DNA of 64,000 nt, from NCBI GenBank assembly GCA_963749705.1, contig CAVVNQ010000008.1:331692-395691 (forward strand), in the 5' to 3' direction. The DNA is from an uncultured Chloroflexia bacterium. Lineage in GTDB: Bacteria; Chloroflexota; Limnocylindria; Limnocylindrales; CSP1-4. Shown piece by piece: positions 27,596 to 30,313 of the stretch (positions within the stretch are counted from its first letter, which is position 1; each line of letters starts with the position of its first letter). Under the pieces are notes generated by a model. It made no database searches. It saw only the letters and a list, made by a program, of their open reading frames with translations, and was not told the DNA's origin. The translations under genes were made by a program, and so were the position numbers.

Positions 27596-28483
27596 TCAGC
27601 GGGCGGGCGGCGGCAGGCTCCCGACGAACCGACGGATGACCCGGGCCAGCTGCGGACCGGAGACCTCGCCCGCCTCGAGCACCTCGGCGTGGGTCAGCGG
27701 CTGTCCGCTGTACCCCGCGCCCGCGTTGGTGACCAGGGACACGCCGCACACCTCGAGCCCGATCCAGCGCGCGGCGATCGCCTCGAGCACCGTGGACATG
27801 CCGACGGCATCGGCGCCCATCGTGCGCAGCATCCTGACCTCGGCCGGGGTCTCGTACGTGGGGCCGATCAGGCCGGCATAGATGCCCTCGGCGAGCTCGA
27901 CGCCCTCGGCCGTCCCGGCCGCGTGGAGCCGCTCGCGGAGGCGGGGTGACCAGACGTCGGTCATGTCCGCGAACCGGGGCCCGAGCTCGTCCGCGTTGGG
28001 CCCCAGCAGCGGCGTGCGTCCAGTGAGGTTGAGGTGGTCCGAGATGACCATGAGCGTCCCGGGCCCGAAGGACGGGTTGACGCCGCCGGCGGCGTTGGTC
28101 AGCACCACGAGCTCCGCGCCCAGCTGGCGGAACAGCAGCACCGGCTGGACCACCAGCCCGGGGGCGTTGCCCTCGTACAGGTGGAACCGGCCCTGGAGCA
28201 TGACGACCGGGGTCCCGGCCAGCCGGCCCAGCAGCACCCGGCCCGCGTGCCCCGGTGCCGTCGCGACGGGCCAGCCGGGCAGGTCCTCGAACGGGATGGT
28301 GACCGCATCCTCGAGATCGTCGGCGAGGCTGCCCAGCCCCGATCCCAGGACGATGCCGGCGCGCGGGACGAGGGCCGTTCGCGCTCGCACGGCCGCAGCC
28401 AGGGCCGCCAGGCGAGCCGGTTGCTCCGCGGGCGCGATCGGGCGCGACCGGTCGATGGGCGTCAGGGGAAGGTCGTCGCTCAT
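27596..28483 (-). CDS. punA: Purine nucleoside phosphorylase (trimeric, PNP I)
   Basis: GIVLGSGLG, GHAG, QGRFHLYEG, TNAAGG, GPTYETPAE, VGMSTV, SLVTN; TATCCT lies 6 nt before the ATG. Confidence 0.95.
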   Translation of the reverse strand: MSDDLPLTPIDRSRPIAPAEQPARLAALAAAVRARTALVPRAGIVLGSGLGSLADDLEDAVTIPFEDLPGWPVATAPGHAGRVLLGRLAGTPVVMLQGRFHLYEGNAPGLVVQPVLLFRQLGAELVVLTNAAGGVNPSFGPGTLMVISDHLNLTGRTPLLGPNADELGPRFADMTDVWSPRLRERLHAAGTAEGVELAEGIYAGLIGPTYETPAEVRMLRTMGADAVGMSTVLEAIAARWIGLEVCGVSLVTNAGAGYSGQPLTHAEVLEAGEVSGPQLARVIRRFVGSLPPPAR

Positions 28484-28502
28484 GGGGGCAGGATAGCCGC
28501 GC

Positions 28503-28822
28503 GCCGATGGGTCGGCATCACCGGACGCCTGGGCTGCGGCGGAGTCGCCTGCGCCCGATCGCGGTCCGGGAGCCGAAAACTTCGACGCCCGGAGGGAGTA
28601 CCGACACCGGGATGCCGGTCACGTCCTTCCGGGCGCCCACCGCGACGGCCCTTGCGGACCGCCGACGCTGGCAACGAAGCGCCCGAAGCGACCGGAGAGC
28701 GTCGGTCCTTGATGTGATCGCGGACCTGACGCCGGCGTGGCCTTGAGGTGATCTCAGCCGGCCGGGTGGAACGGGCTTGAGGCGATCGCCTCCGTTCCGG
28801 GCCTCCATCGGCCCCTTCGGGC
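28503..28822 (-). ncRNA. Putative novel structured ncRNA (~310 nt) with three tandem loop-conserved hairpins
   Basis: Own promoter; ends pair (GCCGAUGG/CCAUCGGC); three hairpins with loops GCGAUCGCCUCAA, GAGAUCACCUCAA and GCGAUCACAUCAA; GCAA tetraloop and G-U pairs favour the minus strand. Confidence 0.7.
28707..28787. repeat. Three 13-bp direct repeats at an exact 34-bp period
   Basis: CCTTGATGTGATC (28707), CCTTGAGGTGATC (28741), GCTTGAGGCGATC (28775), separated by unrelated 21-bp spacers. Confidence 0.9.
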
Positions 28823-28829
28823 AGGACCC

Positions 28830-28858
28830 ACACTAGGGGCGCCGCGCCCGACCTCCAA
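28830..28858 (-). promoter_or_regulatory. Sigma70-like promoter for the putative ncRNA
   Basis: Minus strand TTGGAG-N17-TAGTGT. Confidence 0.6.
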
Positions 28859-28863
28859 GCGGG

Positions 28864-28938
28864 TTGTCCACCAACCGCGGGCCACGGCCCGTCCCGTCGT
28901 CCACGAGTTTTCCTCCCCTGTGGACGACCTGTGGACGA
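28864..28938. promoter_or_regulatory. Cluster of four DnaA-box-like 9-mers
   Basis: TTGTCCACC (28864), TCGTCCACG (28897), TGTGGACGA (28919, 28930); 1-2 mismatches to the high-GC box TTGTCCACA. Confidence 0.55.
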
Positions 28939-28965
28939 GCGGGCCTCCCCGGGTGTCGGGCGGCG

Positions 28966-30078
28966 CTAGCCGCCCAGCGCGAACATCTCCACCTTGGGCA
29001 GCAATTCCGTGGCGGCGCTGCGCAGCTCCGAGTACCGGTCGGTGCGCACCGCCCACACGGCCCGCAGCCGCGCCTCGAGCTCCGCGTCCGTCTCGCCGTC
29101 TCGCAGCGGCGTCTTGAGGTCCGTCCCGTGCACCGCGAACAGGCAGGTGTACAGGTGACCCTCGGCAGACAGCCTCGCCCGGGTGCAGTCGCCGCAGAAC
29201 GGCCGGCTGACCGAGGCGATCACGCCGACCTCGCCCGAGCCGTCGCGGAACCGGTACCGGCCGGCCACCTCCCCGCGATAGTTGGCGCCGACGGGCTCCA
29301 GGGGCAGCTCGGCATCGATCGCCGCCAGGATCTCGTCCGCGGGCACCACGTCATCGAGGCGCCAGCCATTCGAGTGCCCCACGTCCATGTACTCGATGAA
29401 CCGCAGGACGAGGCCCCGGTCCCGCGCCCACCGCACGAGCGGCAGGATCGACGCCTCGTTCATGCCCCGGCGCACGACCGTGTTCACCTTGATCGGCGTG
29501 AGGCCGGCGGCGCGGGCCGCGTCGATGCCGTCGAGAACCCGCGACACGGGGAAGTCGACGCCGTTCATCGTGCCGAACACGCGATCGTCGAGCGAGTCGA
29601 GGCTGACGGTGATCCGCCGCAGTCCGGCGTCGGCGAGCGGAGCGGCGAGGGCACGCAGCGCGGAGCCGTTCGTGGTCAGGGTGAGGTCGACCGGTTGCCC
29701 GTCCTCCGTGCGCAGCTTCGCCAGGTGCCCGATCAGGACCGGCAGGTCGCGACGGACCAGCGGCTCACCGCCCGTGATCCTGAGCTTGCCCACGCCGAGC
29801 CGGACGAAGATGCCGGCCAGTCGCGCGATCTCCTCGAACGTCAGCACCTCCGCCCGCGGCAGGAACGCGAAGTCGCGGCCGAACACCTCGGCCGGCATGC
29901 AGTACGGGCAGCGGAAGTTGCAGCGGTCGGTCACCGAGATCCGCAGGTCGCGCAGGGCGCGGCCGAGACGATCCGTCACGCCGGGGCGCCCATCGAACTC
30001 GAGCGCCGAGGCAGACGCGGGTGCGGCGGCGAGCGAGGTTCCAGGCGGGCGGAGGGGAGGATCGGGGACGGGTGCCAT
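28966..30078 (-). CDS. moaA: GTP 3',8-cyclase
   Basis: LRISVTDRCNFRCPYCM radical SAM motif, FCGDCTRARL...C and C-terminal ALGG; TACCAT lies 6 nt before ATG 30078. Confidence 0.97.
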   Translation of the reverse strand: MAPVPDPPLRPPGTSLAAAPASASALEFDGRPGVTDRLGRALRDLRISVTDRCNFRCPYCMPAEVFGRDFAFLPRAEVLTFEEIARLAGIFVRLGVGKLRITGGEPLVRRDLPVLIGHLAKLRTEDGQPVDLTLTTNGSALRALAAPLADAGLRRITVSLDSLDDRVFGTMNGVDFPVSRVLDGIDAARAAGLTPIKVNTVVRRGMNEASILPLVRWARDRGLVLRFIEYMDVGHSNGWRLDDVVPADEILAAIDAELPLEPVGANYRGEVAGRYRFRDGSGEVGVIASVSRPFCGDCTRARLSAEGHLYTCLFAVHGTDLKTPLRDGETDAELEARLRAVWAVRTDRYSELRSAATELLPKVEMFALGG

Positions 30079-30313
30079 GGCGCCATGGTAGTCGGCCGGC
30101 CGCAACGTGCCCCGATCCGGGGGTCGGATCGGTCCGCGGGCCCAACCGCGGCCTGCACCGGGAGGCGGTGCACCGATGCCACGACCCCCACCCGCCGGTA
30201 CCACCGGGATGCCCCACTGGTACCTCTAGCGACTCCACCGGAGCCCACCGGCCCGCCTATTGTCAGGCCAACGCCCGGTTCTCGGTCCCCGAGTGCAGAG
30301 GAACTTCCCGGTC

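Follow-up and report, generated by a model that had tools for sequence, protein, structure and literature searches.

The 64,000-nucleotide (nt) stretch analysed here, which we call the window, belongs to contig CAVVNQ010000008.1 of an uncultured Chloroflexota bacterium of the class Limnocylindria. On its minus strand, the gap between moaA (28966-30204), whose product shows Radical_SAM and Mob_synth_C domains in profile searches, and punA (27596-28483), whose product is a PNP_UDP_1 phosphorylase (E 1.3e-49, also from a profile search), is home to a structured small RNA with three hairpins that carry the same 13-nt loop. Our results indicate that this RNA is real, strongly expressed and apparently undescribed in soil Chloroflexota of this class. 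The features of the locus are as follows, in window positions.

28930..28938, minus strand: DnaA box 1, TCGTCCACA, forward, at -114 from the RNA 5' end; TCCAC invariant in 29 sequences of the genus
28919..28927, minus strand: DnaA box 2, TCGTCCACA, forward, at -103; boxes 1 and 2 are called as an 11-nt tandem repeat of two copies
28897..28905, minus strand: DnaA box 3, read on the RNA strand as CGTGGACGA, reverse, at -81; GTGGA invariant in the genus
28864..28872, minus strand: DnaA box 4, read on the RNA strand as GGTGGACAA (TTGTCCACC in reverse orientation), at -48; adjoins the -35
28830..28858, minus strand: promoter, with -35 TTGGAG (28858-28853), a 17-nt spacer and -10 TAGTGT (28835-28830); conserved
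28579..28823, minus strand: small RNA of about 245 nt (P1 clamp, three loop hairpins and 3' domain), from conservation, covariance model and RNA contigs
28803..28822, minus strand: P1 5' strand, GCCCGAAGGGGC .. GG.AG; pairs with 28699-28681, and 3 of the 10 pairs of helix 1 are compensatory
28768..28798, minus strand: hairpin 1, loop GCGAUCGCCUCAA (28789-28777); helix 3, with changes on both sides in 6 of 6 pairs at the family level
28732..28765, minus strand: hairpin 2, loop GAGAUCACCUCAA (28755-28743); helices 4 and 5, in the family-level covariation count
28701..28730, minus strand: hairpin 3, loop GCGAUCACAUCAA (28721-28709); helix 6, in the family-level covariation count
28681..28699, minus strand: P1 3' strand, CUCU..GUCGCUUCGGGC, from the consensus fold and its counted pairs
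28579..28680, minus strand: 3' domain, helices 7-10, with closing helix GCUUC/GAAGU (28680-28676 with 28583-28579)
28659-28648, minus strand: GCAA-capped hairpin in the 3' domain; conserved
28637-28584, minus strand: long hairpin in the 3' domain (GCCCGGA.GGA/UCC.UCCGGGC and ACCGG/CCGGU), whose tip ACCGGCAUCCCGGUGUCGGU (28619-28600) is nearly invariant
28490..28495, minus strand: TATCCT, putative -10 for a leaderless punA mRNA, with 6 nt between it and the ATG at 28483; outside the RNA

Fold, boundaries and expression of the RNA

Blastn comparisons retrieved the intergenic block from 32 of 36 other genomes of the genus (71-92% identity) and from none of 24 genomes of a neighbouring family. In the genus alignments, conservation begins about 120 nt upstream of the hairpins and has a sharp end at about 28577. 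RNAalifold, applied to 29 sequences of the genus, yielded 67 pairs, 15 of them with compensatory change; for counting, this fold was curated to 64 pairs in 10 helices, and the control consisted of the same pairs with partners slid by 1-3 columns. At the genus level 97.0% of the cells were paired, versus 31-49% with slid partners, and changes on both sides were found in 16 pairs (1-6 when slid) and 78 cells (1-13 when slid); none of 500 shuffles matched the pairing values. Likewise, in a family-level alignment fitted to the covariance model, 95.5% of the cells were paired, and 32 pairs and 136 cells were changed on both sides, versus 6-17 and 10-33 in the control. The covariance model, R1, scores 269 bits on the window RNA. 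The fold z-score was -4.13 for the minus strand (not reached by any of 100 shuffles) and -2.04 for the plus strand, and the consensus fold includes invariant G-U pairs, indicating that the minus strand is the one transcribed.

In this fold, P1 forms a long-range clamp around the three loop hairpins, and the 3' domain follows. A first-pass annotation of the window had proposed three stems that differ in sequence and yet each pair, followed by a GCAA-capped hairpin and a long nested stem; the three stems do pair, and covary in relatives, and the two elements of the 3' domain are real and conserved. Two further proposals of that annotation have to be abandoned. The outer end pairings, GUCGCGGU/ACCGCGAU and GCCGAUGG/CCAUCGGC, find no support, because both draw on sequence 3' of 28579, which is not conserved and has no RNA contig cover; what the 5' end pairs with in the conserved fold is the P1 3' strand (at 28692-28681), and GCUUC pairs with GAAGU. 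The length, given as about 300 nt (300 to 356 nt as implied by 28503-28858), comes down to about 245 nt, from about 28823 to 28579, as deduced from the span of the RNA contigs and the position of the conserved -10.

Expression was evident in public sequencing data, where 24 runs from 14 studies, 23 of them recorded as RNA, contain 10-20% of the sampled words of 28450-28950. Four of these runs, from four studies, were aligned as Logan contigs at a likeness of at least 80%, and their RNA contigs were confined to 28577-28822, with summed word depths of up to 7909 (the run in question has 31 million letters), 2184 and 1866; contigs of this sort tell us that the RNA is present and roughly what it spans, but not how much of it this organism makes. 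One contig of 241 nt covers 28580-28813, and two others have a plus-strand poly-T just before 28579/28580, which corresponds to a polyadenylated minus-strand RNA with the 3' end ...CGAAG(U). The flanks (28450-28568 and 28824-28950) have no RNA contig cover, which is a weak hint only, the flanks being also less conserved than the RNA. The restriction of the metatranscriptome contigs to the RNA stretch agrees with the earlier prediction of an independently expressed, structured non-coding RNA.

Two open reading frames (ORFs), of 96 and 117 codons, are open over the region, and G.GATC.C is palindromic as DNA, so that one could take the locus for a gene, or the repeats for sites of a dimeric DNA-binding protein. 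We give this almost no credence. Relative to the window, 91 of 92 insertion or deletion events are not multiples of three, the overlapping frames have stops in relatives and there is no excess of change at third positions; also, the stems covary, the G-U pairs are strand-specific and the abundant contigs of RNA libraries are restricted to the element. As far as sequence can tell, the coding and DNA-site readings are thus refuted, in keeping with the first view that the repeats do not belong to a protein and with the lack of coding conservation in the 96-codon ORF.

The RNA does not belong to a family known to Rfam: searches with Rfam 15 at gathering thresholds gave no match in the whole 64-kb window, and those with E values up to 10 on 28400-29050 gave five chance-level matches of 11.8-18.1 bits, versus cut-offs of 35-70. 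No model of RNase P, transfer-messenger RNA, signal recognition particle RNA or riboswitches was matched, as anticipated from the absence of their signatures, and RNase P in particular sits elsewhere in the genome of this bacterium, on contig C15. We also discarded 6S RNA, whose fold is unlike this one and whose model RF00013 has no match in the genome, although it detects 6S in only 5 of 14 control genomes, and Y RNA, there being no Ro60/TROVE gene (PF05731) found in the genome. The texts and excerpts returned by literature searches hold no account of this RNA and no described regulatory RNA for Limnocylindria; sequence strings matched only primers in unrelated papers.

The repeated loop and its distribution

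The three loops recur with a period of exactly 34 nt, as first noticed by eye of the letters and now borne out by pattern scans. With at most one mismatch, the 13-nt pattern has seven matches in the window versus 0.86 expected, and none of 100 shuffles reached seven; exact matches in the 3.6-Mb assembly are limited to these three, and a reversed-pattern control gave none. We collected 154 loops from 61 RNAs, which have the consensus G-N-G-A-U-Y-R-C-M-U-C-A-A. Positions 1, 3, 4, 10, 11 and 13 were set by the regular expression used, and are invariant in the genus alignments, while 5, 8 and 12 are nearly invariant. Variation is confined to positions 2 (C 83, A 70), 6 (C 132, U 20), 7 (A 104, G 50) and 9 (A 80, C 74), with U6 accompanied by G7 in 19 of 20 cases. 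The commonest loop in the family is GCGAUCACAUCAA/GAUCACAUCAA. The loop is therefore conserved while the stems covary, as the first-pass annotation would have it. The number of loop hairpins per RNA is three in all 29 sequences of the genus; in other genera of the family it is one in 14 sequences, three in 11 and five in two, and in a second family (f4, see below) it is two in all five sequences. Such variation fits the multivalent logic that was attributed to the RNA from the beginning.

An exact-pattern scan for the invariant 3' hairpin retrieved at least 120 stretches of public genomes. Among the matches listed (80), 76 lie in metagenome-assembled genomes (MAGs) labelled Chloroflexota, Chloroflexia, Limnocylindria, Limnocylindrales or Anaerolineaceae. 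The other four of the 80 listed (L073, L074, L099 and L129) are in MAGs labelled Deferrimicrobiaceae, Sulfomarinibacteraceae, Polarisedimenticolia and Binatia.

With the R1 model, we examined the family of this bacterium (f1) and three other families from a draw of genomes of the class (f2, f3 and f4). Matches were found in 108 of 150 genomes and 38 of 49 genera of f1 in a draw of that family (the own genus counted, and one unpublished genome, G141, included), and in 30 of 44 f1 genomes in the class draw; f4 had matches in 8 of 50 genomes, f2 in 0 of 6 and f3 in 0 of 49. Nearly all matching genomes have a single match, with a weak second one in two, and match lengths range from 50 to 343 nt, mostly owing to the number of loop hairpins. 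The f4 form, of about 125 nt, consists of P1 and two hairpins, without the 3' domain and without punA nearby. A second locus at a contig start in one f4 genome (G216:C40:13-78) has three GAU(C/U)GCAUCAA loops with a period of about 28 nt; the same genome has a two-hairpin RNA on its contig C1. A two-loop pattern, searched in 401 Chloroflexota genomes, matched in 16, and the matches outside the class look unrelated. In f15, a family outside the class, three loci (L206-L208) contain 21-nt-period repeats with GATCGCCTCAA- or GATTACCTCAA-like words; these look coding and unrelated to the RNA.

The genome of this bacterium contains more than one RNA of this design. A scan for the -48 box plus promoter produced four matches, all followed by GCCCGAAGGGGCC, which correspond to these loci:

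C8:360513: paralogue A, the window RNA, minus strand of the window, about 245 nt; P1, three loop hairpins and 3' domain
C10:33745, minus strand: paralogue B, 73 nt; 13-bp P1 and one hairpin with loop GGCGAUGACAUCAACGCC/GAUGACAUCAA, of the same loop type
C4:22014, plus strand: paralogue C, about 180 nt; P1 and three other hairpins
C2:290084, plus strand: paralogue D, 86 nt; P1 and one hairpin

The P1 5' sequence of the window RNA recurs in paralogues B, C and D, which have a P1 of 13-14 base pairs (clamp GCCCGAAGGGGCC/GGUUCCUUCGGGC) followed by a U-rich stretch, and all four loci have, besides the -48 box, two or three further boxes. Relatives possess the same paralogue types: the exact box-promoter-P1 pattern occurs, in one to four copies each, in 28 of 35 f1 and 14 of 40 f4 genomes, versus 0 of 5 in f2 and 0 of 39 in f3, and a reversed control gave none throughout. 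From these paralogues and this distribution, we conclude that the window RNA is the largest member of a paralogous family.

DnaA boxes and a proposed mode of action

The promoter TTGGAG-17-TAGTGT of the first-pass annotation is present as described, and its TTG and TAnnnT letters are invariant in the 29 sequences of the genus and kept across the family. Upstream of it, DnaA boxes resembling TTATCCACA, which the first-pass annotation had missed along with the paralogues, hold the positions -114, -103, -81 and -48, give or take 2 nt, in nearly every one of the 61 sequences, which come from f1 and f4, with spacings of 11, 22 and 33 nt that amount to whole helical turns. Box 4 is TTATCCAC(G/C) in most other genera, and TTGTCCAC is also seen.

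In this genome, boxes of these kinds also form a cluster immediately downstream of dnaA. There, seven DnaA-box-like 9-mers, including TTATCCACG and TTGTCCACG, occupy 187647-187868 of contig C3, just past the stop of dnaA (at about 189371-188010, minus strand), and this cluster is a likely oriC, next to dnaA being the usual place for it. An origin of replication at the RNA locus was considered and rejected, the GC skew being flat and the C3 cluster a better candidate. Another group, of five same-strand GTCCAC(A/G)/ATCCACG words with spacings of about 21 or 42-44 nt, lies within 130 nt at C8:207179-207307.

The explanation to which we incline, though we rate it somewhat short of an even chance, is that of a multivalent RNA, controlled by DnaA and acting in trans, that binds one partner through its loops; for the partner we favour a protein. 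The product of the locus is a small RNA, stable and abundant, that represents a new family and would act in trans, and whose transcription would follow the state of DnaA, because of the four helically phased boxes upstream, the last of them touching the -35. The 5' and 3' parts of the RNA pair as the GC-rich clamp P1 and so present one to five hairpins (three here), each with the same 13-nt loop, which would be a docking site for one partner, most likely an RNA-binding protein; the RNA might thereby serve as a multivalent sponge or scaffold. In the genus of the window, the transcript stops with the 3' domain, shortly before punA. The data establish that the RNA exists, how it folds and where it ends, that it is abundant in RNA libraries, that its loop is conserved while the number of hairpins varies, and that the box layout is kept and paralogues are present; control by DnaA, action in trans and a protein partner are what we infer from this architecture. 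Action in trans is suggested by the f4 form, with the same boxes, P1 and loops but no adjoining punA or 3' domain, and by the three paralogues, which lie at unrelated places of the genome and share promoter and P1.

A number of observations weigh against this proposal. Profile searches found Hfq (PF17209) in none of 61 genomes of the class, and neither CsrA (PF02599) nor ProQ was found in the genome of this bacterium, which is 88% complete. Loop positions 6 and 7 vary by transitions (C/U and A/G), which would also fit a fixed RNA target. At the locus, a simple consensus scan detects no promoter and no terminator, and the case for binding and control by DnaA is purely sequence-based; as 9-mers that loosely resemble the box abound in this GC-rich genome (2.24 per kb, with 22 clusters of at least four), it rests on conserved position, not on enrichment in a single genome. 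The RNA contigs derive from relatives or near-identical strains in metatranscriptomes, and are not strand-specific reads of this organism; some of them continue past the 3' end, by 77 and 255 nt, in sequence unlike the window there. Finally, in several other genera a Shine-Dalgarno (SD) leader of punA begins right after the RNA, leaving no room for a promoter, and the RNA may act there in cis.

This last point bears on the relation of the RNA to punA. Of 57 distinct places in f1 (60 loci, three places being taken twice), 54 have punA directly after the RNA in the same orientation, and 53 have moaA before it. The longest frame of moaA (412 amino acids, GTG start, window 28966-30204, minus strand) probably has an overextended N-terminus, because relatives align only from about residue 30-78 and Radical_SAM starts at residue 89. 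In the RNA-SD leader arrangement only some 40 nt separate the RNA from the punA start codon, and at six loci (L039, L048, L049, L050, L052 and L057) GCGGGCCUC, just after the RNA, is able to form a stem with GAGGCCCGC, a stretch that spans the SD and lies directly against the AUG; a compensating version, CGGGACC/GGUCCCG, exists at L047. This hairpin looks like a translational control element, and in these genera the RNA probably doubles as a leader of punA. The 3' domain is present only where punA follows, and the contigs that run past the 3' end could also be cited for a cis-acting leader, in which a ligand or protein on the hairpins or the 3' domain would decide between termination or processing and read-through with translation of punA. 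As a general account of the RNA we nonetheless consider this unlikely. The promoter and P1 recur without a punA downstream in the f4 form and in paralogues B, C and D (in the f4 form and B together with the loops), and one f1 locus (L020) has the RNA with no punA within 1.5 kb. In the genus of the window, punA has its own TAnnnT-N6-ATG, 97 nt from the RNA end, and the RNA contigs end at 28579/28580 with poly(A); moreover, a range of one to five hairpins would be unusual for a ligand-binding leader. A TAnnnT some 6-7 nt before the punA start codon is found in relatives of the genus and in some other genera, which suggests a leaderless punA mRNA in them. Thus, of the original view that punA has a leaderless -10 of its own and that the RNA is hardly its untranslated region, the first half is plausible in this genus, with TATCCT, while in other genera co-transcription with punA is likely.

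Concerning the partner of the loops, the RNA could instead be a base-pairing regulator, with the loops as seeds for RNA targets and several loops for several targets at once, a possibility that comes second in our ranking, though on balance we regard it as rather unlikely. CCUC loops would pair with SD sequences, GAGGUGAUC being the perfect complement of loop 2, and for CAUC loops the partners would be G-AUG start regions or GUGAUC-type 5' ends. In organisms without Hfq, exposed loops often act as seeds, and no Hfq was found in the genomes of the class searched here. Positions 6 and 7 admit only C/U and A/G between invariant flanks, as wobble-tolerant pairing to 5'-GUGAUC-3' would allow, and loop 2 shares nine letters with the 16S 3' tail of this genome, GGAUCACCUCCUU, and therefore would pair with the partners of the anti-SD. 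However, no enrichment of loop complements was seen: TTGA[GT]G[CT][AG]ATC has only three non-self 11-mer matches genome-wide, all in coding-looking DNA, and TTGAnGTGATC, with at most one mismatch, has 192 that resemble ordinary coding sequence. At positions 2 and 9 the alternatives are C and A, a transversion that no single target base could pair with in both states; U6 keeps company with G7 more strictly than expected under independent wobble; and the commonest loop, GAUCACAUCAA, is devoid of the anti-SD core. Two specific targets were tried and dropped: feedback pairing with the dnaA leader gives duplex energies (-14.7 to -17.4 kcal/mol) that fall in the background range set by 300 random windows, and among 558 candidate starts of leaderless mRNAs 11 begin with GUGAUC, which is not clearly an enrichment. 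In paralogue B the loop contains GAUGAC, though the next gene starts with GUGAUC.

The likeness of loop 2 to 16S rRNA also allows for mimicry of its 3' tail, with loops copying the GAUCACCUCC site of the KH domain of Era, a ribosome-assembly GTPase, and the RNA titrating Era, or another reader of the 16S end, so as to couple ribosome maturation to DnaA status. According to the review PMC10582724, the GxxG motif of Era recognises GAUCA, especially two adenines and the guanine, followed by CCUCC, and the site is the single-stranded tail after helix 45. Loop 2 has GAUCACCUC in common with the 16S 3' end of this genome, and GAUCA occurs in 101 of the 154 loops. But the second adenine is replaced by G in 50 of 154 (GAUCG, GAUUG), with GAUUG in all ten f4 loops; A at position 9, in 80 of 154, breaks CCUC; the conserved 3' part is UCAA, not UCC; and a hairpin loop is not the single-stranded tail described in that review. 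Because so many loops lack the second adenine or CCUC, the link to Era is a minor lead, and mimicry an improbable explanation. Equally much of a long shot is the wider scheme of a Limnocylindria regulon, in which up to four abundant clamp-stem RNAs per genome would stand under DnaA and the largest, with one to five loops that mimic the GAUCA(CCUC) tail of 16S rRNA and titrate a reader of that tail, such as Era, would directly tie ribosome maturation or translation initiation to replication initiation. Finally, the first eight loop positions, G1-N2-G3-A4-U5-Y6-R7-C8, form a near-palindrome (G1/C8, G3/Y6, A4/U5), so that loops might kiss within or between RNAs to give dimers or networks. The invariant letters are symmetric, position 6 is always C or U, both of which pair with G3, and the full 8-nt palindrome GCGAUCGC appears in 22 of 154 loops. 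Yet three of four symmetric pairs are complementary by chance in about 15% of 8-mers (an arithmetic estimate), positions 2 and 7 mostly fail to match (A.A, C.A), GAUGAC variants (paralogue B and one of the 154 loops) break the symmetry, and the invariant UCAA is left unexplained; self-association seems very improbable to us.

Comparison with known systems

Limnocylindria are widespread in soils and fresh water and almost uncultured. Given its high metatranscriptome depth and its presence in runs of several studies, the RNA described here would be a dominant non-ribosomal transcript and a ready marker of activity for them. The variable count of identical loops offers a clean handle for pull-down or mutational tests of its partner.

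Relative to Rfam and to the literature retrieved, this is a new small RNA among those that repeat one loop motif; in logic it is close to CsrB, cuckoo and 6C RNAs, whose defining features it lacks. The first-pass annotation had invoked CsrB. As in CsrB/RsmZ, many copies of one short motif are placed in the hairpin loops of a small RNA, in a number that differs between relatives; here, however, the motif is GNGAUYRCMUCAA instead of GGA, a clamp helix encloses the hairpins, the promoter has DnaA boxes and Rfam gives no match. Position 2 is G, giving GGGA, in only 1 of 154 loops, and with no GGA in the loops and no CsrA, Hfq or ProQ gene found, the RNA is not a sponge of the CsrB type. Cuckoo RNAs, the Yfr2 family and the actinobacterial 6C RNA display the same loop motif on several hairpins. 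They resemble our RNA in having repeated hairpins with unrelated stems, one conserved loop motif and several paralogues per genome, and differ from it in loop motif, taxon and architecture, the P1 clamp and 3' domain being particular to the RNA described here, for which neither an Rfam match nor target pairing was found.

Among abundant stable RNAs, 6S RNA and Ms1 bind RNA polymerase. Our RNA resembles them in being abundant in RNA libraries and in the pairing of its 5' and 3' ends, but 6S is a rod with a central bubble, while here a multi-branch clamp holds hairpins. A protein gene preceded by tandem units of about 34-36 nt recalls type III antitoxin RNAs (ToxI); in our case the units share the loop only, Tandem Repeats Finder calls no 34-nt array at the RNA locus, and the gene downstream encodes a PNP_UDP_1 protein, not a toxin of the ToxN/AbiQ type.

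With regard to the promoter, sda of Bacillus subtilis has a DnaA-activated promoter with several upstream DnaA boxes. CcnA is a cell-cycle non-coding RNA of Caulobacter (PMC8959179). In sda and CcnA, as may be the case here, a small regulator is made under the command of a master regulator of replication or the cell cycle; the present locus differs in that its product is a structured RNA family, with a box layout kept across two families and a presumed control by DnaA. If the proposed control is true, four phased boxes in two families, and up to four paralogous small RNA genes per genome, would represent an unusual role of DnaA as a transcription factor of non-coding RNAs. The DnaA-box promoter is a hint that replication control and RNA-based, post-transcriptional regulation may be connected, and its layout makes this connection testable.

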